Positions 3,043-50,429 of a stretch of 64,000 bases of DNA are shown one piece after another. The stretch lies in assembly GCA_963677465.1 (NCBI GenBank), contig OY781976.1:5247678-5311677 (forward strand). The letters run 5' to 3'. The notes under the pieces were generated by a model. The model did no database searches and was not told the DNA's origin. It saw only the letters and a program-made list of their open reading frames with translations. Position numbers and translations under genes: made by a program. The first letter of the stretch is position 1. Each line of letters opens with the position of its first letter. The DNA comes from an uncultured Desulforhopalus sp. (GTDB taxonomy: Bacteria; Desulfobacterota; Desulfobulbia; Desulfobulbales; Desulfocapsaceae).

Positions 3043-4476
3043 ATGTTGACCGCATCCGAAAAGAAAACCCTGAAAAGTCTTCTGGCTATGACCCAGGAAC
3101 CAGATGATACCTTTAGTTATGAAGAGTTGCTTGGCTACATGTTTGGCCTGGCAATGACGCCCGACATCCTTCTTCCCAGCGAATGGATGCCCATTATCTT
3201 TGGCGGAGAGTTACCACCTTTCGATTCCGTCGACCAGATGCAGGCAATGACCGGCAACCTGATTCAGGTCTACAACAACTTCATCGCCGATTTTAATAAT
3301 GATAAGCTAAAATTTCCCTTCAAGATAGACAAGCTAAAAGACCAACAGTTCGCCGCACTCTACGAATGGGTTTCAGGGTTTGAGGAAGCAATCGCCCTTC
3401 GCGAAGAATTGTGGGATCCCGAAGAATTTCCCGACCTCAGTGATGGCAAAAAAGAGGAACTTTATCACAGCATGATGACCATCCAGGGGCTGGTCGATCC
3501 TGTGGAGGTTATGGATTATTTTGAGGATATGCCAGACGAAGTGTTTCAGGAGGCCTTTTCCGGCATGGATATGGGGGCCAACGATAGGGAGGCTCAGATC
3601 CAGGTATTCCTGATAGCATCCCTGCCATTGGCAATCGAAACTTTCCAGAAACATGCCCGTATAGTTGAGAAAAATCGCCAACAGCGAATTACCAGACGCC
3701 CCACACCACCTACTCCTATTCGGTCCGCCAAGATCGGGCGAAACGACCCCTGCCCCTGCAACAGTGACAAGAAATTTAAGAAGTGTTGCGGCTCCGGTGA
3801 TAATCAGCAGGCGAGCCCCCCTGGCGGAAAGTCATCGAAAAAATCCAACGTTATCAAGGTCGATTTTCCGCAACACGGCAAAAAACCTGCCGTTCCGGCA
3901 CCTGTTTATCAACTCAAGGTGGCACTGCAGGGCGCGAAGCCACCCATCTGGCGGAGAATTCAGGTTCCGGGCAACATCACCCTCGAACAACTACACAGTG
4001 TAATCCAACTTTGTATGCAGTGGGACGACCAGCACCTGCACCAGTTTCTTATCGACCGGACCTGTTATAGCCTGCCGGATGGGGATGATTTATGGCAGGC
4101 CAGCAGGCCGAAAAACGAAGCAAAGTTTACCCTGCACGATCTTCGGGAAAAAATTCAGCCACAATTTCAATATATTTATGACTTCGGGGATGACTGGATA
4201 CACCAGATAAACGTGGAGGAAATCCTCCCCGCCGAAGAAGGTAAATCCTATCCGGTGCTGATTGCCGGCAAACGTGCCTGTCCGCCGGAAGATATAGGCG
4301 GCATCCACCAGTACAATCACATCCTGGCAGTCCTCAACGACCCTGAAGATGAGGAATATGAAGAGGTGGCCAGTTGGTTAAATATGGATATTTTTCATCC
4401 GGCCAGCTTCGATAAAGAAGATATTGCAGAAATCAATGAGACCCTGAAAAAGCTATTTTCACCAACAAAAAAATGA
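3043..4476 (+). CDS. YecA/UPF0149-like protein with a SEC-C zinc motif and a C-terminal pRiA4b ORF-3-like (MM3350-like) domain
   Basis: 477-aa ORF. It carries the SEC-C motif DPCPCNSDKKFKKCCG. The C-terminal block YQLKVALQGAKPPIWRRIQVPGNITLEQLH ... YIYDFGDDWIH matches my memory of the PRiA4_ORF3 family. Confidence 0.65.
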   Translation: MLTASEKKTLKSLLAMTQEPDDTFSYEELLGYMFGLAMTPDILLPSEWMPIIFGGELPPFDSVDQMQAMTGNLIQVYNNFIADFNNDKLKFPFKIDKLKDQQFAALYEWVSGFEEAIALREELWDPEEFPDLSDGKKEELYHSMMTIQGLVDPVEVMDYFEDMPDEVFQEAFSGMDMGANDREAQIQVFLIASLPLAIETFQKHARIVEKNRQQRITRRPTPPTPIRSAKIGRNDPCPCNSDKKFKKCCGSGDNQQASPPGGKSSKKSNVIKVDFPQHGKKPAVPAPVYQLKVALQGAKPPIWRRIQVPGNITLEQLHSVIQLCMQWDDQHLHQFLIDRTCYSLPDGDDLWQASRPKNEAKFTLHDLREKIQPQFQYIYDFGDDWIHQINVEEILPAEEGKSYPVLIAGKRACPPEDIGGIHQYNHILAVLNDPEDEEYEEVASWLNMDIFHPASFDKEDIAEINETLKKLFSPTKK

Positions 4477-6974
4477 ACACCCCAAACCCCGAACTCCTGC
4501 TCGCCGAGGAATTTGTCCGGGACACCGGCTGCAATATTTACCTGACCGGCAAGGCCGGCACCGGCAAAACGACTTTTCTGCACAATCTCAAAAAGAAAAG
4601 TCCAAAACGGATGATTGTCACCGCGCCAACCGGCGTGGCCGCCATTAATGCCGGTGGTGTAACATTGCATTCCTTTTTTCAGATGCCTTTCGGACCATTC
4701 GTTCCCGGTAGCGAAACCACAGCCCGGCACAAGTTCAACAAAGAAAAGATCAATATCATCAAAAGTCTCGATCTTTTGGTAATTGATGAAATAAGTATGG
4801 TACGGGCCGATCTGCTGGATGGCATAGAGGCTGTGCTGCGCCGTTATCGCCGAAGCGAGCTTCCCTTTGGCGGCGTGCAGCTGCTCCTGATCGGAGACCT
4901 GCATCAGCTCGCTCCGGTGGTCAAAGACGTCGATTGGCGTCTTTTAGCCCAGTACTATGACTCGCCCTATTTTTTCAGCAGCAACTCGCTTCGCCAGACG
5001 GAACTTATCGCCATCGAACTCAAGCATATATATCGCCAGGAAGACAACCACTTCATCGAGCTTCTCAACCGTGTCCGGGACAATAACCTTGACCAGGCAA
5101 CGCTCACAAGCCTTAATGCCCGGCACATCAACGGTTTTGCCGATATCGACCACGAAGGTGAAGGGTATATCACCCTCTGCACCCATAACAGCAGCGCCGA
5201 CACCATTAACGCCTCCAGGCTCAAAAAGCTTACTCAGAAAACCCATCGTTTTGATGCCGAGATTGAAGGTGAGTTTCCGGAACATTCCTTCCCCACCTCG
5301 CCCACCCTCGAAGTAAAACCACAGGCTCAGGTCATGTTTGTTCGCAATGATTCGACGCCTGAAAAACGCTTCTTTAACGGGAAAATAGGTAAAATCACCC
5401 GGATATCCGGCGAAAAAATCTGGATAAAATGTCCGGATGATGTGGATGAAATTATGGTCGAGCCGGCAACCTGGGAAAATATCGACTATTCGCTCGACCC
5501 GGAAACACTGGAGATTACCGAGAATAAAATCGGTGCCTTCATTCAATATCCCTTAAAACTTGCCTGGGCAATCACCATCCACAAGAGCCAGGGTCTCACT
5601 TTTGATCGGGCCATTATCGATGCCCAGGCGGCCTTTGCCCATGGCCAGGTATACGTGGCGCTCAGCCGTTGCCGAACCCTTGAAGGCATGGTCCTCAGCT
5701 CGCCGCTCTCACCACGAGCCGTGAAGACTGACATAGCCGTGCTCCGCTTTGTCGAAAAAGCGAGAGAGAATGTTCCCACCGCAGAAAGACTGGCTATTGC
5801 CAAGATCCGCTACCAGCAGCAGCTGCTCCTTGAGTGTTTTAATTTTAAAGAACTGCAAATTCTTTTCTCCCGGCTGCTCTCTCTTGTCGACAGGAATCCT
5901 GACCTGATCAAAATATTAGGCGCAGGCAATCTTCAGGAACTGAGCCAAAAAACCGTCAACGAAATCTGTACAGTCGGAGCTAATTTCGGGCGACAGCTGC
6001 AGGGACTCTTCACCGAAACGATTTTTCCCGCTGAAGACCCTACAATACTTGATCGAATTCAAAAGGCATCGGCCTATTTTACCGAGAAAATCGAAACAGG
6101 CACAGGCCTTAGCAAATACGTGGGACAGCTGCAGATAGAAACCGACAACAAAGAGCTTCGCAAAAAGGCAAAGCGAATCTGCAAACAGCTCCAGGAAGAG
6201 ACAATTGTTAAACTGGCGGCGGTAAAATGTTGTGCCAGCGGTTTCAGCACATCGCTATATCTTCGGGCTATATCCACGGCCGAGATTGAGGCCGCGCCGA
6301 AACAAGAGCGGGAGGATCGGGTTACAAAAACGGCAATCACCTACACCGAAGCCGATATCGACCATCCTGAACTCTTCCAGACTCTGCGGGATTGGCGGTC
6401 AGAAAAAGCACAGGAGGCAGGAGTCCCGCATTTTCATATTTTGCATCAAAAAACCCTGATCCAGATTGTTGTCAACCTGCCCAATACCATCAATGCCTTG
6501 ATGAAAATCAAGGGCATCGGCAAGAAACTGACCGAAAAATACGGCCAGGAGTTGGTTGCCATGGTTTCAGATTACCGGGAGAAAAACAATATTGTCGAGG
6601 TCTTTCTCCCGGCTACAACCGAGACGCCGCCAAAAAAATCAAAACAAGCCAAAGACCCGGATGCACCCAAAGTTGATACAAGACAACTCAGTTTCGATCT
6701 TTTTCAACAGGGCCTGTCCCCTGCGGAGATAGCCGACCAACGAGACATGGTCATCTCGACAATAGAGGGACATCTGGCTCATTTCGTGGCAAACGGGAAG
6801 CTGGCAGTAGAGAGCCTGCTTTCTGCCGAAAAGCTTCAGGTGATCGAGGAAAAGCTGCAACAGATGCCGGGCAAAAAACTCAGTGAAATAAAACTGGCGC
6901 TGGGCGGCGATTACAGTTACGGCGAAATTAAATTTGTCCAGGCTCATCTGCAGAAGCTTGCCGCGGGAGACTGA
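4473..6974 (+). CDS. PIF1/RecD-like superfamily-1 DNA helicase with C-terminal HRDC-like and helix-turn-helix-like extensions
   Basis: 833 aa. Walker A GKAGTGKTT and Walker B LLVIDEISM. Family motifs LLLIGDLHQLAPV, AITIHKSQGLTFD and YVALSRCR. HRDC-like segment LFQTLRDWRSEKAQEAGVPHFHILHQKTL. The start ATG overlaps the upstream stop (ATGA). Confidence 0.8.
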   Translation: MNTPNPELLLAEEFVRDTGCNIYLTGKAGTGKTTFLHNLKKKSPKRMIVTAPTGVAAINAGGVTLHSFFQMPFGPFVPGSETTARHKFNKEKINIIKSLDLLVIDEISMVRADLLDGIEAVLRRYRRSELPFGGVQLLLIGDLHQLAPVVKDVDWRLLAQYYDSPYFFSSNSLRQTELIAIELKHIYRQEDNHFIELLNRVRDNNLDQATLTSLNARHINGFADIDHEGEGYITLCTHNSSADTINASRLKKLTQKTHRFDAEIEGEFPEHSFPTSPTLEVKPQAQVMFVRNDSTPEKRFFNGKIGKITRISGEKIWIKCPDDVDEIMVEPATWENIDYSLDPETLEITENKIGAFIQYPLKLAWAITIHKSQGLTFDRAIIDAQAAFAHGQVYVALSRCRTLEGMVLSSPLSPRAVKTDIAVLRFVEKARENVPTAERLAIAKIRYQQQLLLECFNFKELQILFSRLLSLVDRNPDLIKILGAGNLQELSQKTVNEICTVGANFGRQLQGLFTETIFPAEDPTILDRIQKASAYFTEKIETGTGLSKYVGQLQIETDNKELRKKAKRICKQLQEETIVKLAAVKCCASGFSTSLYLRAISTAEIEAAPKQEREDRVTKTAITYTEADIDHPELFQTLRDWRSEKAQEAGVPHFHILHQKTLIQIVVNLPNTINALMKIKGIGKKLTEKYGQELVAMVSDYREKNNIVEVFLPATTETPPKKSKQAKDPDAPKVDTRQLSFDLFQQGLSPAEIADQRDMVISTIEGHLAHFVANGKLAVESLLSAEKLQVIEEKLQQMPGKKLSEIKLALGGDYSYGEIKFVQAHLQKLAAGD

Positions 6975-26753: not shown

Positions 26754-27557
26754 CTATAAAAACTGCATTACTGGCCGCTCAATCAGCTGTTCCAGCGGAA
26801 CAGTGGTATATTTCTTCTGCAATGTGCCAAACAGGAGATCGAGTTCTTTTTGCCAATCGTCCAACTGGTTTTTCTGATTTGGCGGAAGGTCGTGGAGCAT
26901 TATTATATTGCCAGGTTGGAGACGTTTGAGGATTTTTTCGGCGAGCTTATGGATATTCCGGTTGCCTCGATCAAAGGCACGGCAGCTGTAATTTACCGTT
27001 ATGAGGCCTTCTTCTGCCAGCACTCTACTGAGACGAGAACCGGTGATCCCCGCAGGCGGCCTGAAAACGAGAGGTTTCACGCCATATTGTTTTAAGATTT
27101 CCTGATTCTTATGGATATCCTTCTGTATTCTTTTTTGGCTTCGGAACATGAGAAAATAATCATGATGCCAGGAATGATTGCCTATGGTATGGCCTCCATC
27201 AAGAATCCTTTGGATCAATTCAGGATGTTGAGCCGCCTTTTCACCTATCATAAAAAATGTCGCATTTAGGTTGTGACGTGCCAGTAAACCCAGCAGAACT
27301 GGCGTAGACAGAGGTGATGGACCGTCATCAAAGGTAAGGGCAATCGCCTCACTTCCTGCTTGGCCACGACTGATGACCGGCAGGAAAAAGCCAAATTCCG
27401 GCAAAAATGGTGCTGCAAAGCAGAGGATAAGGAAAACAATCAGCGGCAAGGCTGCCAGCAAAGGAGCAACACAAAAGAGAACAATCGCCAACAATAGCGC
27501 CAGAATGCCGGTTTTAGCAGCCAAAGACAAGGGTATCTTATTATTGTTATAGAGCAA
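26754..27557 (-). CDS. Membrane-anchored polysaccharide deacetylase (NodB homology domain)
   Basis: Two N-terminal TM helices, then NodB motifs LTFDDGP and GNHSWHH. Overlaps the end of the MMPL gene by 11 nt. Confidence 0.8.
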   Translation of the reverse strand: MLYNNNKIPLSLAAKTGILALLLAIVLFCVAPLLAALPLIVFLILCFAAPFLPEFGFFLPVISRGQAGSEAIALTFDDGPSPLSTPVLLGLLARHNLNATFFMIGEKAAQHPELIQRILDGGHTIGNHSWHHDYFLMFRSQKRIQKDIHKNQEILKQYGVKPLVFRPPAGITGSRLSRVLAEEGLITVNYSCRAFDRGNRNIHKLAEKILKRLQPGNIIMLHDLPPNQKNQLDDWQKELDLLFGTLQKKYTTVPLEQLIERPVMQFL

Positions 27558-30500
27558 TGGCCGTCTCTTTCTTCGCCCGACAGACCATCCAGACCAACTC
27601 CGGATTAACAGCCGAGACTTCGTTTACGGTGATTTCAAAACCCGCTTCTTTCATCAATTCCACTATATTTTCTGCGGTACGATAGTAGACAGGCCGGCCA
27701 GATAATTTTATGCGGCTATTCTCCAACCGCCAGGACCATGACGGCCGACCTGTCGGCAGCAGCGTAAACCTTGTCACCAGAAGACCTTTATCGCCAAGAG
27801 CCTGAAAACTTCTTTTGCATACAGCAGCAACAGTCGCATCGTCGAGATAGTGCAGCATATCCAAAAGTAAAACGATATCCGCCGGGCGGGAAACAACGGG
27901 CATCTCCGGGGCCCAGCCAACGGTTACCTCTCCCCGGTCAGCCACGGCCAGGGCCGCCACTCTCACCCTCTCGGGATCGGGGTCGATACCAAAAATTTCC
28001 GCGTCACGATACTGTTCCAGACACCAACAGGCCGGCACCCCAAAACCACAGCCAATGTCTATAATGGTTGTAATATTTTCATGTCCGGCTAGCATTCGGG
28101 GCAGATCCTTAAACATCGTATCATACTGTAACTTAAAGCGGGCAAACATCCTTGGATACGGCTCCAGGGTCTGGTAGCGATCACGAATGCGCAGGATGCT
28201 ATTTTTGTTGCTCGAACGGCCAACTTTACGATTTTGCCGAGCCACATAATTATTCAACAGCGGTGGCAGCAACAGAAAGGTACCAAGCAGAGAATAACCA
28301 ATACCAAGTAGAGACGTAATACCAATGCTTCTAAGTAAAGAATGTTCGGCAACAGCGAGCACCCCAAAACCGATCAGGGTAGAGGCCCCGGCCATAAAAA
28401 CAGCGACCCGCACGAGAACATAGGAAGGATGGTTGACATCACGGTATCGCTGATGGGCCCGCACACAAAAAATGGAGTAATCAATGCCCATACCAAGGAT
28501 GACAACCGACAACATAAGCGCCGGTATATCAAGAGGATGGTTGATAAGCTTCAAGGTTCCCAGAGTGCAGATATAGGCAAAAAAAGGTGGCAGCAAGGTG
28601 AGCAGCGTCAGCTGCAGGTTCAGATAGAAAAAAAATGTCAGTAAAACTATGCTGGCAGCAATGATCACCAGCATGGTGGTGAAGGTTGAAAACAAAATAT
28701 CAGCCAGCCTTTTTGTGAAAAAGCTGGCATCAAATATTTTGCCCAGCTTACCATAGCGACTCAAAAAATCAGCGCCGTCATAATATTTGCTCGGTTGAAT
28801 GGTAATAAACTGTATCAGTCCGGAGTTGCTTTCTTTTTCTGAGATACCCAGCAGGCCATAATATTTGGCCGGAATTGGTTGGGACTGTAGGGTAAATGAG
28901 GGGTCAAGCAGAGAAAGAAAATGATTAAAGGCATCAGGCATAAAGCCGAGCTCTGTTCCCGCCGCCCGCAAATCCTCTGCAAGCTGCTTCCCTCTGTGAT
29001 TACTCCAAAACTCATGCCAGGCGGCCAAGTTTTTCCTGGCTCTCTGCTCGCCTGGAAAAATCATCGACGGCACAAAGGCAGCGGTTATGTCCTCATCCTG
29101 GATGTCTTGTTCGATCTTGCCGAGAAGCTGGTCGTTGTCCGTTTGAATTCCGGCAATGCCGGCGATCCTATCGGCCGAATTCATCAGGAAAACCCGTTCG
29201 CCGATATTTCCCCAAACTTCTGTAAACAGTGCATCGGCGGCAAGAGTTTCCTCGCTCACGGTGTTCATGCTGCTAAGACTCACCTCAAATTGCGGTTTGG
29301 CAAAAATGAGCAGGACAACTGCCAGGAGAGCCGCAGCGCAGGCACCCGGCTTCCCGGTACTGTAGAGGATATTAACAAGGCCACGAAGGGGCAGGGCACG
29401 GCCACCGCCCGGCGGCATCACCGGAAAGATTCTCGGAAAAATTGTATGGACAAAGAGAAAAGAGAAGAAAATGCCAAGGGCGGTGAACTGACCCAGTTCA
29501 GCAAAAATCAAAAACCCGCTGGAGCTGAGAATCAAAAAGGCCCCGATGGAGGTAATGACAGCCATTAAACCGATGGCATAGACCTCATGGGCTGCTTCCT
29601 TGCCCTTGGTCTGATGATTTCGATCAAGAAACAGCAGGTAGGCAATACCATGATCCACCGTGATGGAGATAATCGCCCCACCAAAACCCAGCACCATAAT
29701 CGAGATGGATGAATGAAACAGGGAGTAGACAAAAAGGGCTGCACCCGTACCGGCAAGGGCAGGCACCAGGGATAACAGGCCAAGCAGGGGTCTGGGGAAG
29801 GCAAAAAGAAGGAGCAGGCCAATGCCCACAGTGGCCAGAATCAGGGCCAGTTGAACATCATGGCGGATTATAGTTTCGTTATCAAGAGCCGCCCGATAGG
29901 CCCCCACCGGCGTGAGTGTTACTTCGTGGCCTAACGAGGCGAATTTCTCACTGATTTCCCGGGTACTTTTGGCAATAAGCTCGGAAATCTTCCGGGCAGA
30001 CGCGGTATCGGTACCTGTTGCCCGTGGTCTGGCAACAACCAACAGATGATGACTGTCAGCCGAAAGCAGACTTCCCCGGTAAAATCTGGAGTTCAGCGAA
30101 GGCGCCAGTGGAGCCATCTTGGCAAGGATCAGATCTTTCAAACCAAGGGGATCCAGATCAATAAATTCCGCCTGCCCTATGCCGTCCATGCTACTCAGGT
30201 CCTGATACAGCTTTTGCAGACGTTTATGAATCTGCTCTGAACCAAGCAGTGGCGCGACCTTTTGTTCCAATTCCTTTTTTGAAAACAGTATTGGCAGGTT
30301 TCTCGCCGCGTGAAAGGCCAGCTGTGGAATCAGTTCGCCGATTGCATCGGTACCAACCTGGGCAAACAGGCCACTCTCCTCCATTTTCTTTTCAAGGAGG
30401 GAACCAACCTCAACCAGAGTATCCGGATCATCACTCTCCAGCATAATGTCCACAGCAATTTGATCATGCACGGGATGATGTTCAAAAATATCAAGAGCAT

Positions 30501-30630
30501 CGGCAATAACCTTTTCGCCGGACGGCAGGGAACGGGCCACATCGGTATCGATATCAAGGCGCAGCAGTCCCAAAGCGGCCAAGGTAAAAACAAGCACAGA
30601 AACACCGGTGAGCAGTCGATAATTGATCAT
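27547..30630 (-). CDS. MMPL/RND-superfamily lipid exporter fused to a C-terminal class I SAM-dependent methyltransferase
   Basis: 1027 aa. The first ~780 aa have the two-fold 1+5 TM pattern with large periplasmic loops of MMPL-type exporters. The last ~200 aa contain SAM-binding motif I (IIDIGCGFGVPACW), FGIDPD and LLLDMLHYL. Confidence 0.75.
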   Translation of the reverse strand: MINYRLLTGVSVLVFTLAALGLLRLDIDTDVARSLPSGEKVIADALDIFEHHPVHDQIAVDIMLESDDPDTLVEVGSLLEKKMEESGLFAQVGTDAIGELIPQLAFHAARNLPILFSKKELEQKVAPLLGSEQIHKRLQKLYQDLSSMDGIGQAEFIDLDPLGLKDLILAKMAPLAPSLNSRFYRGSLLSADSHHLLVVARPRATGTDTASARKISELIAKSTREISEKFASLGHEVTLTPVGAYRAALDNETIIRHDVQLALILATVGIGLLLLFAFPRPLLGLLSLVPALAGTGAALFVYSLFHSSISIMVLGFGGAIISITVDHGIAYLLFLDRNHQTKGKEAAHEVYAIGLMAVITSIGAFLILSSSGFLIFAELGQFTALGIFFSFLFVHTIFPRIFPVMPPGGGRALPLRGLVNILYSTGKPGACAAALLAVVLLIFAKPQFEVSLSSMNTVSEETLAADALFTEVWGNIGERVFLMNSADRIAGIAGIQTDNDQLLGKIEQDIQDEDITAAFVPSMIFPGEQRARKNLAAWHEFWSNHRGKQLAEDLRAAGTELGFMPDAFNHFLSLLDPSFTLQSQPIPAKYYGLLGISEKESNSGLIQFITIQPSKYYDGADFLSRYGKLGKIFDASFFTKRLADILFSTFTTMLVIIAASIVLLTFFFYLNLQLTLLTLLPPFFAYICTLGTLKLINHPLDIPALMLSVVILGMGIDYSIFCVRAHQRYRDVNHPSYVLVRVAVFMAGASTLIGFGVLAVAEHSLLRSIGITSLLGIGYSLLGTFLLLPPLLNNYVARQNRKVGRSSNKNSILRIRDRYQTLEPYPRMFARFKLQYDTMFKDLPRMLAGHENITTIIDIGCGFGVPACWCLEQYRDAEIFGIDPDPERVRVAALAVADRGEVTVGWAPEMPVVSRPADIVLLLDMLHYLDDATVAAVCKRSFQALGDKGLLVTRFTLLPTGRPSWSWRLENSRIKLSGRPVYYRTAENIVELMKEAGFEITVNEVSAVNPELVWMVCRAKKETAIAL

Positions 30631-45466: not shown

Positions 45467-45639
45467 AATGGGTTTTTATTGGGCAAGAAATTTCTAAGAA
45501 AAATGATAACTTTTACGAGTAAGCGGGATACTACACAGTTTCTGCCAATTTCAAAAGATTTTATTGAACTATTGAAGCCACCCAAAATTCAATACAACCA
45601 AGCTAACTAATTGGATAGAAAAGAAGATATTGCAAGACA

Positions 45640-45657
45640 CAGGCAACGTTTTGCCTG
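45640..45657 (-). terminator. Candidate hairpin terminator downstream of the thioesterase gene
   Basis: CAGGCAA-cgtt-TTGCCTG (7-bp stem) about 90 nt after the stop on the minus strand. The tail is pyrimidine-rich but is not a clean U-tract. Confidence 0.3.
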
Positions 45658-45746
45658 ACAGGCCGCATCTTAACCAATTTTAACAACGGCGCCAAAGAGT
45701 TCGACCTTGCTTAGACCAGCGTCTCTGCTCATTGCTGAGTGATTGT

Positions 45747-46157
45747 TCAAGAGAGGAATTGTTCGGTTTTTTCGATAAACACAGCGGGAATTTCAACGAC
45801 TTTTTTCTTCTGATAGTCGAAGGCCAAAAACGTTGTGAAACCGCTGAGCAGTTCCTGCTTATCTGATTCCCGAATGACACTATATTTGAGGGTACATTTT
45901 TTCCCGGCTATCTCTGCTATGGCAACATTGACAAGGAGTACATCATGGAGGAAACCTTCCCGGTGATATTTCACGCCCGATTCCACAACGATGATTCCGG
46001 TGTTCTCTCCGATGTTTTTATCTGAAAGACCAATATGTTGCAAAAAGTTGATGCGCCCCTCTTGAAAGATCACTAAAGCTCGTTCATTACCAAGGTGGAA
46101 ACCAGCACTGATATCGTTTTCTTTTATGATATAGCGGGTGGAAAAAAGTTCGGCCAT
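45747..46157 (-). CDS. Hot-dog fold thioesterase (monocistronic)
   Basis: 136-aa ORF with a 4HBT-like pattern (ALVIFQEGRINFL...IIVVESGVKYHRE). This is a family-level call only. Confidence 0.55.
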   Translation of the reverse strand: MAELFSTRYIIKENDISAGFHLGNERALVIFQEGRINFLQHIGLSDKNIGENTGIIVVESGVKYHREGFLHDVLLVNVAIAEIAGKKCTLKYSVIRESDKQELLSGFTTFLAFDYQKKKVVEIPAVFIEKTEQFLS

Positions 46158-46374
46158 TGTATTGTTCCTCCAGTTTTTTTAACAAAACGACCTAAATTAC
46201 TTCAAGTCTTTGCAGGTGTATAGATTTATTTTTCGGTGTAATGTGGGGCTGATGTGATCTACTTTTAGTCGCAGGGGCCTTGGCCGAGGAATCTTGCCTC
46301 CCGCTTATTTGTCCTTGCTGTTATACTGACAAAAAGAGAATTCAATCAAATCGAGCCAGGAGATTTTATACTTT

Positions 46375-47064
46375 ATGGGATTGAAAATTAATGAGCTATT
46401 GTCTTCAAAGTTTGCACAATGGCTGTTGTATAAATTCATTCGTATCTACTCGTTAACATACAGGCTTGAAGTCCAGAACGAAGGTGAGTGGCTTGATTAT
46501 TTGCACAATAATGGCCGTATTATTCTTTGCGCCCATCATCAGCAGTTCTTTCCAGCTATTCGTTATTTCCAACGGTATAAAAAATATAAGCCGGGCCTTA
46601 TGATAAGCAGGAGTAAAGACGGTGAATTCATTTCCGGTGTGGCCAACAGATCCGGATGGACAACAGTAAGAGGATCTTCCTCCAGGGGCGGGGCTGAAGC
46701 TTTAAAAGGGATGATTGATCATCTTGCCGAGCATAGACTTGCCGGTCATGTAATTGATGGCCCCAGAGGGCCTTTTGGTGTTGTAAAGCCTGGAATAATA
46801 AAGCTTGCTCAAGCCACTGGTGCCGTTATTGTGCCTCTTTACACCAGAGCGAATAGAGCTTGGTATTTTCGAAGCTGGGATAAGTTTTTTCTTCCGAAAC
46901 CTTTTTCGAAGGTCATATTACGGTTCGGGGAGAAAGTAGAATTTGCACCGACTGAATCAACTGAGGAATTTGAAAAACAGAGAAAGACGCTTGAAAATGT
47001 TATGTCAAAAGGAAATGATACGTTAATCGCTGATGTTTTAGGGCATTCCTTTAAGAAAGAATGA
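46375..47064 (+). CDS. DUF374-type lysophospholipid acyltransferase family protein
   Basis: ISRSKDGEFISGVANRSGWTTVRGSSSRGGAEAL block is characteristic of DUF374 (from memory). ATG preceded by AGGAG. Confidence 0.65.
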   Translation: MGLKINELLSSKFAQWLLYKFIRIYSLTYRLEVQNEGEWLDYLHNNGRIILCAHHQQFFPAIRYFQRYKKYKPGLMISRSKDGEFISGVANRSGWTTVRGSSSRGGAEALKGMIDHLAEHRLAGHVIDGPRGPFGVVKPGIIKLAQATGAVIVPLYTRANRAWYFRSWDKFFLPKPFSKVILRFGEKVEFAPTESTEEFEKQRKTLENVMSKGNDTLIADVLGHSFKKE

Positions 47065-47210
47065 TCACCAAGTGGGGTGTACTAAGAGGGCTGCTTTCGT
47101 CCATAAAAAGAAATTTCCAAGAGCTGAAAAAGCCACTTTATGAAAAAATTATACTGTTAAACCAAATTGTTGGGTTGGCCCCACTCCGACCAACACCGAC
47201 ATCCACCTCC

Positions 47211-47768
47211 TCAGGCCTCTATCAAATGGTTGATTCCAGACACGAGCACATTGAAACTTTTGGAGTGATTGGATTTTAAATTCAGATAGGGGGCAATAGC
47301 CCGGGAACCGGAAACTTTATCATATGTATTGTTGGTAAGCCTGTATAATTCTTCAGCTGGGCTTCCTAAAACATCAGGGTTTCTAAATTTTTTCCCCTGT
47401 TGCTGTGTTTTAAGTCCTTTTAGACCAAGGCCTTTTTCTACGGCTGCAAGATCACCCAGGTAAAAGCTTTCCAACTCTCGACAAGCAATTCGAACCAATA
47501 CCTTTTGTTTTCCAGATTCGTTACATAATCCAACCAATTTGTTTTTTATCGTTTTGCAATCCCCCGAATCTTGATCTCGCATCACCACGAATATGGATTC
47601 CGGTAACCTCCAACCGCGCAGTTTCGGCTTCAAGTTTTTTTCAAGATCTTGCTTGCCCTGAAAAACAACATAGCGAACATGAACGTTATCAGGAAGAAGA
47701 CGGGGAAGAATACCTGCAAGCATTTCACGGGCCGAAGGTTCTTCAAGAAAAAAAACAATGGTTTTCAT
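47211..47768 (-). CDS. DUF4276 family protein (Toprim-like, putative nuclease partner of the upstream ATPase)
   Basis: N-terminus MKTIVFFLEEPSAREMLAGILPRLLP with a conserved Glu. Acidic cluster VVMRDQDSGD, then ELESFYLGD. The start overlaps the ATPase stop (ATGA). Confidence 0.7.
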   Translation of the reverse strand: MKTIVFFLEEPSAREMLAGILPRLLPDNVHVRYVVFQGKQDLEKNLKPKLRGWRLPESIFVVMRDQDSGDCKTIKNKLVGLCNESGKQKVLVRIACRELESFYLGDLAAVEKGLGLKGLKTQQQGKKFRNPDVLGSPAEELYRLTNNTYDKVSGSRAIAPYLNLKSNHSKSFNVLVSGINHLIEA

Positions 47769-48952
47769 TGAGGATCAGCTCCTTCCAAAAAGCCTTGATC
47801 CCAGAGATAGCCCATCTTATCACCTTGAGCCATGTATACAGAGAGCTGCTCGTCATCCTTTGCCCGTCGGATCTGAGAATAACCATCTTTCTTCACCAGC
47901 CAGAACACTTCGTCAAGTCTTGTCGCATTTAAAAAGTCGGGAGAATGTGTGGAAACAAAAACCTGACCGCCGCGATTGGCATAAGCACGAAATTCTTCAG
48001 CTAGCTCCCATAGAAGTTTTGGATAAAGCTGGTTTTCCGGCTCCTCCACACATAGCAATGGATGAGGGTTCGGGTCGTAAAGAAGCGTCAAATATGCTAG
48101 CATTTTGATGGTTCCGTCGGAAACATATCGAGCAAGAAAAGGATCTTCAAATACTCCGTCCTGAAATTTCAGAAGCACTCTTCCTTCTTCTGTCGTCTTC
48201 GAATCGACATCGGAAATACCGGGGACTCTTCTCCTGAGAAGGTCGAGAATCTTTTTAAAAATCTTATCATGGTGATTATGAAGGTATTGAATAACTAACG
48301 AGAGGTTCTCACCTTCACGCGAAAGATGTTCGGCATATCCAGCTTCCTGCTCTGGTCTAGCCTTACTGATATGGAAATCAGAAACATGCCAGTTTTCAAT
48401 AAGATTGCCAAGCGCCATAACAGCGGGAAACCTCGCAAACTGTGCTAATCCTTTAACTGCGAGAATGTCAGAAGATTTGAGTGTTTGCTCTTCGCGGTTC
48501 AAGTCTTTTACGTCCGTCACGGAATCAAGCTCATTTGTAACGGCTGTACCCGTTCCTCGTTTAAAATTAAGGAAATGCCAAGGTTGTCCGCTACTACCCC
48601 TCCTATATTTAAGAACCTCTCTTTCCACAATAGCCTTTCCTTTCTTTTCACCAATTTGGAGGAAGTAAGTTGTCAGTGGGCTATCTGGTTTGGCACGGAA
48701 CTTTAGTTCTATTTCGATTGGTCCTTTGGAGTTTCGGCTACGCACTTCTTGAAATCCCCGGCTTCCGCCGAGTTTCATAAGCGCCGTATTCACATTAGTT
48801 GTCAGTGCATCACGGAGAAAACCGAAAACACTGAAAACGGTGCTTTTTCCGGTACCGTTTGCACCAACAATTACGCAGAAATTTGGAAGATTCTTAAGCT
48901 CTGCATCCTGAAATGTTTTAAAATTCTTTAATCGTATTGACTCGATTTTCAT
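47765..48952 (-). CDS. ABC/SMC-like AAA ATPase (AAA_15/AAA_21 type)
   Basis: MKIESIRLKNFKTF... N-terminus. Walker A GANGTGKST, Walker B/D-loop LLCVEEPENQLYP, and His switch VSTHSPDFL. ATG preceded by GGGAGA with an 8-nt spacer. Confidence 0.8.
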   Translation of the reverse strand: MKIESIRLKNFKTFQDAELKNLPNFCVIVGANGTGKSTVFSVFGFLRDALTTNVNTALMKLGGSRGFQEVRSRNSKGPIEIELKFRAKPDSPLTTYFLQIGEKKGKAIVEREVLKYRRGSSGQPWHFLNFKRGTGTAVTNELDSVTDVKDLNREEQTLKSSDILAVKGLAQFARFPAVMALGNLIENWHVSDFHISKARPEQEAGYAEHLSREGENLSLVIQYLHNHHDKIFKKILDLLRRRVPGISDVDSKTTEEGRVLLKFQDGVFEDPFLARYVSDGTIKMLAYLTLLYDPNPHPLLCVEEPENQLYPKLLWELAEEFRAYANRGGQVFVSTHSPDFLNATRLDEVFWLVKKDGYSQIRRAKDDEQLSVYMAQGDKMGYLWDQGFLEGADPQ

Positions 48953-49553
48953 TTTATATCTCTCCCAGGAACCTTCTTGTCATGATTTTGATTGAAGAAT
49001 TTCAAATAATAATCGTTATAGCAGGTAATTGGTATCACCTTTTTCTAATTGATTGCTGTTAAAATAAGCGCCAAGGTCCAGATTCAAAAACACGCTCCAC
49101 CTTGGTCTCATACTCAGTCATTTTTCCTTTTGCACGCGAAATAATCAACCATTTGGTTGTAGCCCAGCTTTGTGAGTGTATTTTGAAAACAGCCCCAATA
49201 CAAATTACGCCATCACCTATTCTACAAAACTCTTTCTTTGCTGAAAATGAGTGATAAAAAATTCATGGATTTAAAATTATCTTTGAATCAATGCCATCTT
49301 TCAATTTCAAGAAATGCACCTGGTAGATGTCATCAAATTACAATACTGGATTATTTTGTTACGTCGTGGCAACGGACATCTTGTGTTCTTAAATATCATT
49401 GTACAGTTATCACCAATTACTTGTTAACACAATTGGTTATTTCCGCAAGATCAAGACGTTATCTATCACGATAGTTGTGGATTGTATTGATAATGATGGC
49501 GAGAAGCAAGAATACAAATCAAACATATAAACTGCAAAAAGGAGCTATGCTCT

Positions 49554-50429
49554 TTATCGCCGATGAATAAACCGCTCAAAATGATACCATTCAAAGGGAT
49601 GTTGCCGCAGTGACTGTTCTAAAAGGTCGGCATACTGCTGGGCAGCCCGGGCAATGGCTTCGGGCCGATCCTGGCGAGATGTCGACTTGAGGGGTATAGG
49701 GTCGGACAGGGTGAAATGATAGCTGTTTTTGCCGGTGCGAAAGGCAAAAAAGACCAGCAGCGGAGCACCCGAGACCAGGGCAAAGATAAAAGGTGCCTCT
49801 GGCAGGTAGACGTCATGGCCCAAGAAAGTGACACACACCTTGCGCTGGTCGCTGCGCCAGACAATATCACCCGCCATGGACACGAGGCCACCTTTCTGCA
49901 AAAAACGAATTCCTTCTACAGCGGTAAACGGTGAACTGTTTTCCTGGTCCGCACCGATGATGGTCACTCCGGATCGGCGCAGATCATTTTTTTGCATTCG
50001 CTCCACCCCTTCCTTTTCCTTTACGCCCATATAAAGAAGCAGGTGGAGATCCTCCCGCTGTTGCTTGAGCAGGGTCGCGGCCATTTCCCAGTTACCAAGG
50101 TGTGACATCAGCAAAATACCACCCTGGCGACCAATAACTGCTTCCAGATTTTCCCATCCCTCGGAGGTATAAGTCGCTGATTTGGCTTGTCCCACCAGGA
50201 ACCTGTCAAAATGAATAGTGGTGAAATTTTGGTACTGCCTGAAGGTACACCAGAGATGATAGAATCTTCCCCGCTCGGGATACAAAGCGGCATAGAAGCG
50301 GCGACTTTCCGGAACCCGTCTGGAAAAGACAAAATAACCGCCGGCAATAATGCGGGAGACAAGGACAAAGAACCAGGAACCACACAGGCCGGCAACCCGG
50401 ATAAGCAGCCTATACCAAAAGCCATTCAT
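49554..50429 (-). CDS. LpxL/HtrB-like lipid A biosynthesis (late) acyltransferase family protein
   Basis: N-terminal TM helix and the MSHLGNWEMAA motif (HxxxxE/D of the lauroyl acyltransferase family). 4-nt overlap with the upstream GT2 gene. Confidence 0.7.
   Translation of the reverse strand: MNGFWYRLLIRVAGLCGSWFFVLVSRIIAGGYFVFSRRVPESRRFYAALYPERGRFYHLWCTFRQYQNFTTIHFDRFLVGQAKSATYTSEGWENLEAVIGRQGGILLMSHLGNWEMAATLLKQQREDLHLLLYMGVKEKEGVERMQKNDLRRSGVTIIGADQENSSPFTAVEGIRFLQKGGLVSMAGDIVWRSDQRKVCVTFLGHDVYLPEAPFIFALVSGAPLLVFFAFRTGKNSYHFTLSDPIPLKSTSRQDRPEAIARAAQQYADLLEQSLRQHPFEWYHFERFIHRR

Follow-up and report, generated by a model that had tools for sequence, protein, structure and literature searches.

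The window analysed here is a 64,000-nucleotide stretch of DNA from an uncultured Desulforhopalus sp. (assembly GCA_963677465.1, contig OY781976.1, positions 5,247,678 to 5,311,677), and its reverse strand carries two overlapping genes for an ABC-type ATPase and a small protein of the DUF4276 family. Judged by profile matches of both products, the pair represents, in intact form, the candidate defence system HEC-01, which is already catalogued and not new. HEC-01 (Hma-embedded candidate 01) was defined in 2024 as an ABC ATPase with a TOPRIM protein nested in Hma systems (10.1101/2024.01.29.577857). The window holds an ordinary intact copy of it, inserted in a lipid cluster. ATPase and predicted nuclease are co-inherited and translationally coupled, and the catalytic motif sets of both are intact. 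With moderate confidence, we regard the HEC-01 ATPase and its Toprim nuclease as most likely an abortive-infection module of the OLD/PARIS kind.

The gene pair and its assignment to HEC-01

The ATPase gene (47765-48952, reverse strand) encodes 395 amino acids (aa) of the SMC/OLD-like AAA_15/AAA_21 type, and the DUF4276 gene (47211-47768, reverse strand) a 185-aa product predicted to be a nuclease of the Toprim fold that stands alone and carries helices in its C-terminal region. Both open reading frames (ORFs) lie on the same strand and share the four bases ATGA (47765-47768), in which the start codon of the second gene (47768-47766) overlaps the stop codon of the first (47767-47765) and couples their translation. 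Plausible ribosome-binding sites are GGGAGAG, 7 nt 5' of the ATPase ATG, and GGAAGGAG, 10 nt 5' of the DUF4276 ATG. The translation of the ATPase ORF includes MKIESIRLKNFKTF, GANGTGKST, LLCVEEPENQLYP and STHSP, that of the DUF4276 ORF FLEEPS and RDQDSGD. An initial annotation, made from the nucleotide letters, had already described the position and coupling of the two genes, the size and type of their products and these motifs; all were found again on direct reading. The sequence was detected in two public sequencing runs of one organism; none of the runs identified was labelled as RNA.

In Pfam searches the larger protein matched AAA_21 (E 5.6e-30) and AAA_15 (E 4.2e-22), the smaller one DUF4276 (E 1.4e-10, 42 bits vs a gathering cut-off of 30.2). 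The candidate anti-phage module that had been proposed for the pair was given a name by PADLOC, since both proteins matched HEC-01 models over their full length. The ATPase matched model PDLC04144 with 685.8 bits (E 4.5e-207, model positions 1-395 of 395) and a second HEC-01 model, PDLC04182, with E 3.9e-128. The DUF4276 protein matched the Toprim-like model PDLC04143 with 285.1 bits (E 5.3e-86, model positions 1-184 of 190) and also PDLC04202 (E 6.8e-36). All PADLOC matches of the small protein were to HEC-01 models; the ATPase gave weaker matches to AriA (PARIS), AbiLi, Mad3, NsnB (Menshen) and Old. The PADLOC labels are swapped for this subfamily, the ATPase model PDLC04144 being called HEC-01B and the DUF4276 model PDLC04143 HEC-01A, opposite to the other HEC-01 models, which looks like a database naming inconsistency.

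The ATPase displays a Walker A motif (G30-ANGTGKS37), a signature-like motif (S278-DGT), a Walker B motif (L299-LCVEE304) and an H-loop (T335-HSP), which are invariant among 68 homologues. Glutamine Q99 was considered as the Q-loop residue and dropped, as it varies in the wider alignment. In a profile-profile comparison (hhalign), 307 columns of the ATPase were aligned to the ATPase domain of a GajA-like, OLD-class protein (probability 95.5%, E 1.3e-8). Models of RecF and Rad50 were also matched, weakly and at the N-terminus. By motifs and profiles the protein is thus assigned to the ABC/SMC-OLD type and not to the transporter type. Variable residues cluster at positions ~101-110, 141-150 and 221-250 and in the C-terminal 30 residues, and the three variable patches are candidates for a sensing or partner-binding surface.

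For the DUF4276 protein, AlphaFold2 with an alignment of 37 homologues gave a confident model (pLDDT 91.8, pTM 0.87). It consists of a beta-alpha-beta-alpha-beta-alpha-beta core (strands 2-8, 29-35, 58-66 and 91-96) followed by helices. Foldseek returned a single significant match in the PDB, the OLD protein of B. pseudomallei (6NK8; probability 1.00, TM 0.60), and the matched region of ~206 alignment columns is its catalytic C-terminal part with the Toprim and helical domains. A search of the viral structure library gave an RloB-like phage protein as the best full-length match (probability 0.99, TM 0.54). The initial annotation had called the acidic cluster of the small protein reminiscent of Toprim nucleases and had drawn a parallel to OLD, Gabija and PARIS; the first idea agrees with the 6NK8 match, the second with this match and the GajA-like alignment of the ATPase.

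The acidic residues are placed consistently in the predicted fold. E9/E10 lie just after strand 1, D65-x-D67 closes strand 3 and E98/E100 follow strand 4. The model thereby combines a beta-alpha core, a glutamate after the first strand and a DxD motif after the third, a layout which corresponds to the classical Toprim arrangement and has been described for DUF4276 before (PMC12065111). Among 55 homologues there is no variation at E9/E10, D65, D67, E98/E100, D106 and D132; E9/E10, D65-x-D67, E98/E100 and D106 are the candidate catalytic residues. On the strength of the model the DUF4276 protein is predicted to be a Toprim-fold nuclease. DUF4276 is regarded as a divergent Toprim family which is homologous to Mad4 and occurs in some Menshen NsnC proteins (PMC12065111).

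Conservation and distribution of the cassette

More than 3,600 DUF4276 homologues are present in a collection clustered at 90%, and they form 1,636 clusters at 50% identity (274 at E <= 1e-30). The best 150 of these clusters consist throughout of stand-alone proteins, which are ~120-310 aa long and in most cases 180-200 aa. Relatives of the ATPase fall into more than 120 clusters with 83-97% identity, nearly all of exactly 395 aa, and originate from Desulfobacter, Desulfobacula, Desulfocapsa, Desulfofustis, Desulfurivibrionaceae and one Nitrospirota metagenome-assembled genome. The copy in the window belongs to a very conserved subfamily of HEC-01 which is found mainly in Desulfobacterota.

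A metagenomic survey yielded 80 loci, 73 of them with room for the full pair and 57 with usable flanks. The pair was intact in 66 of the 73, and the overlap was ATGA in 64 of these intact pairs and GTGA in the other two. Flanks were distinct in 46 of the 57 loci. Exceptions to the intact pair occur: three of the seven non-intact loci keep an N-terminal DUF4276 stub of 57-63 aa after an intact ATPase, followed by other genes. These stubs lie at L125:2115-2288, L139:1725-1916 and L162:6622-6807; a NACHT-like protein of 1,037 aa comes after the stub in L139, and a PD-(D/E)XK-like gene with an HsdM-like methylase in L125. At a further locus (L117:1315-4644) a helicase-like ORF of 1,109 aa begins with MKTII at the overlap position.

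Annotated genome contexts numbered nine, eight independent ones and the window. Cassettes were located between a nitroreductase gene and pyrF, beside ABC transporter genes and after a 1,765-aa helicase. In a member of the Desulfurivibrionaceae the cassette lies inside the nif cluster, next to a toxin-antitoxin-like pair of the NTase_sub_bind/NTP_transf_2 type (L004:8817-10555). In the Nitrospirota metagenome-assembled genome it lies between ubiD and ubiA, where the ubiA start overlaps the DUF4276 stop (L091:8001-10596). Defence or toxin-antitoxin genes accompany the cassette in a Gabija-like/RadC/HsdR island and at a distance of 5 kb from AbiEi/AbiEii.

When the cassettes of four genomes (L001, L002, L004 and L007) were compared with that of the window, DNA homology extended exactly from the start codon of the ATPase to the stop codon of the DUF4276 gene, and the comparison revealed no common flanks, repeats or mobility genes. 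In each of these five genomes, that of the window included, the guanine-plus-cytosine (GC) content of the cassette lay 5-13 points below that of its surroundings. Synonymous sites were at or near saturation between cassettes (pS 0.66-0.87), and nonsynonymous divergence was limited to 0.03-0.09 for the ATPase and 0.09-0.20 for the DUF4276 protein. The ratio of nonsynonymous to synonymous divergence (dN/dS) was 0.019 for the ATPase in one of four comparisons, dS being saturated in the other three, and 0.04-0.15 for the DUF4276 protein. The pair is under strong purifying selection.

Insertion into the lipid cluster

The pair is surrounded by genes for beta-ketoacyl synthases (KAS), an acyl carrier protein (ACP), a 4HBT_2 thioesterase, DUF374 and LpxL-like acyltransferases, a family-2 glycosyltransferase (GT2), DegV/FakA, an AMP-binding enzyme, B12-dependent radical-SAM enzymes, LolA-like, FabG-like and ApeP-like proteins and a fusion of an MMPL protein with a methyltransferase. 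Relatives of this lipid cluster were collected in a scan of one genome per species, which gave 80 loci of which ~20 kb each were examined (L009-L088). They belong mostly to Desulfobulbales, among them Desulforhopalus (90% and 85% identity), Desulfopila, Desulfocapsa, Desulfobulbus and Electrothrix, and two of the 80 to purple sulfur bacteria. By tblastn, neither the ATPase nor the DUF4276 gene was found at any of the 80 loci, in accordance with the earlier view that the pair is foreign to the lipid cluster. The initial annotation had named conservation of the pair inside homologous lipid clusters as an observation that would refute its proposal; the 80 loci clearly show no such conservation. 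The DUF374 and thioesterase genes of the window were likewise missing from all 80.

The cluster of the relatives is collinear, in the order DegV-GT2-LpxL-ACP-KAS, and in about 30 of the 80 loci the LpxL-like gene is followed by ACP-KAS within 100-250 bp. The ancestral cluster led from the LpxL-like acyltransferase straight to ACP-KAS. DNA synteny of the window with four relatives (L010, L011, L012 and L050) stops at ~49550-49563 and restarts at ~45568; where the window has an insert of ~4.0 kb, the closest relative, Desulforhopalus sp. IMCC35007 (L010), has a spacer of 145 bp. This variable insert (45569-49549) comprises the HEC-01 pair, the DUF374 gene of LPLAT-like type (46375-47064, forward strand) and the 4HBT_2 thioesterase gene (45747-46157, reverse strand). 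GC content at third codon positions is 0.37-0.46 in the insert genes and 0.54-0.57 in the flanking cluster genes. The initial annotation had placed the pair at the convergence of two transcription units of the cluster. This description did not hold, as the cluster of the relatives is collinear and the only converging gene is the DUF374 gene, itself a part of the insert.

A close homologue of the DUF374 gene in another genome adjoins HigB/Phd toxin-antitoxin genes and an RHS gene; because this homologue is located elsewhere in another genome, the insert is a mosaic. The junction between the LpxL-like and ACP genes (45467-49553 in the window) varies across Desulfobulbales. It is empty in the about 30 genomes mentioned and elsewhere occupied by different cargo, 1 kb to more than 9 kb long, namely a B12-radical-SAM gene, GT25 with a deacetylase, a chemoreceptor with MOSC and exonuclease genes, a PIN toxin pair or a cupin gene. 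The idea that the junction is a defence hotspot was considered and rejected: the mixed cargo found there in other genomes marks it as a permissive variable site which is not specific for defence. The pair was inserted horizontally into this permissive junction and has no functional link to the cluster.

An AT-rich gap of ~600 bp upstream of the pair had also been pointed out. The gap is real: non-coding sequence of 601 bp lies 5' of the ATPase gene (48953-49553), with a GC content of 0.344 vs 0.485 in the whole window. It is not a conserved part of the cassette, for it lacks homology to the upstream regions of other HEC-01 cassettes. It probably holds the promoter of the pair. It contains no Rfam family and only short, non-credible ORFs, and promoter-like sites are no commoner in it than in shuffled sequence; a hidden gene or RNA was therefore dropped as an explanation. 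An imperfect inverted repeat of 22 nt (82% complementary; 47214-47235 and 49143-49164) flanks the pair. It was rejected as a cassette end, since the homology between cassettes ends at the coding sequences and other loci have no common flanks, and it is judged to be a chance occurrence. A 72-aa ORF (47061-47279, forward strand), which overlaps the stop codon of the DUF374 gene and the antisense 3' end of the DUF4276 gene, is probably spurious.

The DegV-GT2-LpxL-ACP-KAS block also occurs in the gammaproteobacteria Allochromatium palmeri and Thiorhodococcus mannitoliphagus (L084 and L087), with protein identities of 50-60% for DegV, GT2 and the LpxL-like protein and about 80% for ACP and KAS. 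These copies in purple sulfur bacteria suggest a transfer of the lipid cluster between phyla. The fusion at the edge of the lipid cluster (27547-30630, reverse strand) is a protein of 1,027 aa that joins an MMPL-type membrane transporter to a C-terminal S-adenosylmethionine-dependent methyltransferase. At another place in the window (3043-6974, forward strand), the gene of a 477-aa PRiA4_ORF3/SEC-C/UPF0149 protein overlaps the start of the gene of an 833-aa PIF1-like helicase with HRDC and HTH_40 domains, a pairing which suggests plasmid or mobile-element ancestry. A Ser/Thr kinase is encoded at 263-1603.

Neighbouring defence genes

The surroundings of the cassette were scanned with PADLOC models (E <= 1e-10) for 130 neighbouring proteins, up to three per side, from 46 contexts; 130 ORFs, all from the lipid-cluster loci, served as control. 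The cassette neighbours matched 303 models and the control six, counts which refer to models and not to proteins and, with so crude a control, make the enrichment indicative and not a statistic. Matches of the neighbours include four proteins of the HmaA/DrmD/PLD-helicase type and three DUF1156/type III methylases, and all six control matches were generic cross-matches of radical-SAM or sigma-54-activator proteins. The commonest Pfam families among the neighbours were ResIII (8), DEAD (6), Helicase_C (5), SNF2 (4) and DNA methylases (about 5-7), the rest being metabolic. About one fifth of the contexts are restriction-modification (RM), Hma or DISARM-like loci, one is a Gabija/RM island, one has AbiE nearby and one an adjacent toxin-antitoxin-like pair. 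The association of such pairs with defence genes, which the initial annotation had brought up, stands in part: it is visible in the model counts and limited to a minority of contexts, most of them being housekeeping neighbourhoods.

Proposed mechanism and alternative explanations

On the model of PARIS and P2 OLD, the Toprim protein would be bound and held inactive by an oligomer of the ATPase. An infection cue, which may be a phage protein or an aberrant nucleic-acid structure, would shift the ATP-dependent conformation of the ATPase, and this shift would free or open the Toprim active site. The nuclease would then cut nucleic acid, and growth would stop before the phage cycle is completed, resulting in abortive infection. 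According to a 2026 preprint, P2 OLD is a tRNase whose activation follows from the destabilisation of its tetramer by DNA structures (10.64898/2026.07.10.737580), and AriB acts as a tRNase in the PARIS mechanism (PMC11464382). Since both are tRNases, tRNA would be as plausible a target of the DUF4276 protein as DNA.

The published tests of HEC-01 disagree. A cloned representative conferred no protection in E. coli against any phage tried (10.1101/2024.01.29.577857). A cold-seep study, published in Nature Communications in 2026, ranked HEC-01 among the most abundant candidate types, and one randomly chosen cold-seep HEC-01 is reported to have given E. coli B protection from one or more of the phages T4, T5 and T7 (PMC12881386). 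With this mixed experimental support from two disagreeing tests, HEC-01 is a candidate for anti-phage activity.

Several observations, the negative E. coli test among them, weigh against an abortive-infection module. The positive report states no effect size in its text (PMC12881386), and the tested representatives may be of another subfamily than the conserved Desulfobacterota one of the window pair. The conservation of the ATPase across families (83-97% identity) leaves little room for arms-race diversification. A search of viral contigs found no relatives of the pair. Most cassettes stand alone among housekeeping genes and not in defence islands; Payne et al., who defined HEC-01, state that most of their candidates are not enriched near defence systems (10.1101/2024.01.29.577857). 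On the side of the nuclease, sequence and profile searches of the PDB (phmmer and profile) with the DUF4276 protein found no Toprim or other chain, and hhalign of its profile against the GajA-like protein did not detect the OLD-type Toprim. As sequence-only methods miss this relationship, the Toprim assignment is based on three things: the predicted fold, the topology of the motifs and the literature. The AlphaFold model of the ATPase (35 homologues) had a pLDDT of 47, its alignment being too shallow, and was not used for fold searches. Complex formation, trigger and substrate we infer by analogy.

Given the conservation, the housekeeping contexts and the negative E. coli test, two other explanations stay alive. 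The first of them, which we consider rather unlikely, is a selfish addiction or exclusion module in which a Toprim toxin is governed by an ATPase controller and which persists by post-segregational killing or by excluding mobile elements. It would account for single copies in at least 46 contexts, even inside conserved operons such as the nif cluster, ubiD-ubiA and the lipid cluster of the window, for the toxin-antitoxin genes that are often close by, for a cassette GC content that is always 5-13 points below that of the flanks and for the failure of the E. coli phage test; Pfam moreover describes AAA_21 as a 'putative AbiEii toxin, type IV TA system' domain. It is opposed by the lack of mobility genes and of common ends between copies, by the one positive phage test and by the saturated synonymous sites, which imply that residence is old and transfer not recent. 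Addiction and abortive infection are, however, not mutually exclusive. A related idea to which we give a similarly low probability is that the subfamily is no arms-race sensor of phage proteins. It would instead survey a cue that does not vary, be it an aberrant structure of DNA or RNA, as now proposed for P2 OLD, or a state of the host, or act mainly as a self-preserving addiction cassette; in both cases it would spread as a bare two-ORF unit by a mechanism that leaves no flanks in common. The idea is prompted by ATPases that are 83-97% identical across families despite saturated synonymous sites and vary only in three small patches.

The second explanation, a housekeeping pair that is no immune system and serves nucleic-acid surveillance or repair, in analogy to RecF, an ABC/SMC-like ATPase, with RecR, a small Toprim protein, or else RNA processing, appears improbable and less likely than addiction or exclusion. 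The very strong purifying selection and the length of 395 aa in nearly all of the more than 120 ATPase clusters would suit it, as would the weak N-terminal matches to RecF and Rad50 models, the prevalence of housekeeping genes among the neighbours and the failure to find the pair on viral contigs. Such a pair would not be expected to be so patchy, absent from all 80 related loci within the ~20 kb examined and with an empty site in the closest relatives, nor to change its position in nearly every genome, to have a GC content below that of the host and to occur in truncated copies. The neighbours are also richer in RM/Hma/DISARM-type genes than the control, and the invariant acidic residues indicate a nuclease and not a RecR-like scaffold. 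A role in the lipid pathway, in which the pair might supply a lipid exporter with its ATPase subunit and an accessory protein, is suggested by location only (between the LpxL-like acyltransferase and ACP/KAS, beside the DUF374 gene and the thioesterase) and is refuted by the comparative data, as none of the 80 homologous clusters carries the pair and about 30 join LpxL to ACP directly, other annotated contexts and the commonest neighbour families (sampled neighbours from 46 metagenomic contexts) include no lipid genes, a transmembrane partner is lacking and the ATPase is of the SMC/OLD type.

For annotation, the pair should be labelled as a HEC-01 candidate defence system and kept out of models of the lipid pathway. 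HEC-01 is abundant in Desulfobacterota of sediments and cold seeps, yet the published tests conflict. The extreme purifying selection with three variable patches on the ATPase, the invariant acidic set of the nuclease and the coding-only homology between copies provide handles for experiments, and the conservation raises the question of what so conserved a sensor recognises.

Comparison with known systems

The pair belongs to a wider group that includes OLD, Gabija, PARIS, AbiL and MADS3-4. MADS3-4 has been grouped with AbiL, PARIS and OLD as systems that pair an ABC ATPase with a Toprim protein (PMC11464382). Mad3-Mad4 of MADS and NsnC of Menshen share with the window pair the combination of an AAA_15/21 ATPase and a DUF4276 Toprim partner. 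The match of the window ATPase to the NCBIfam equivalog MAD3 was partial and reached 119.7 bits vs a cut-off of 420; with a score below the cut-off, the ATPase is not a Mad3 orthologue. Unlike in MADS and Menshen, no other components lie within 10 kb of the pair, whose neighbours are lipid genes.

With OLD and GajA the ATPase is homologous over the whole domain, and the small protein shares the Toprim fold match to OLD and the glutamate and DxD residues. In contrast to these proteins, the window system is split into two ORFs, and the PADLOC match to Old reached only 56 bits. There is no GajB/UvrD-type gene near the pair, which sets it apart from Gabija, and DUF4276 has no sequence-level similarity to the OLD-type Toprim.

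PARIS likewise consists of two genes, one for an ABC ATPase of the AAA_15/21 type and another for the Toprim effector, and both systems are placed in one AAA15/21 tree (PMC11464382). AriA models were among the best non-HEC matches of the window ATPase (101 bits). This match is partial and covers two stretches, however, and the small protein has no match to AriB. The effector in the window is a DUF4276 protein of 185 aa, that of PARIS a DUF4435 protein of about 35 kDa, and a phage or satellite location was not found for pairs of the window type.

The closest system is HEC-01 itself. The window pair differs from it in standing alone in a lipid cluster and not embedded in an Hma system. In their structure predictions the authors of HEC-01 re-classed the ATPase as ABC-type and aligned HEC-01B with the Toprim of B. 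pseudomallei OLD (10.1101/2024.01.29.577857). The small protein of the window finds this same match in 6NK8. The window pair has the same order, with the ABC ATPase first and the small Toprim-like protein second, and both proteins match the HEC-01 hidden Markov models from end to end.

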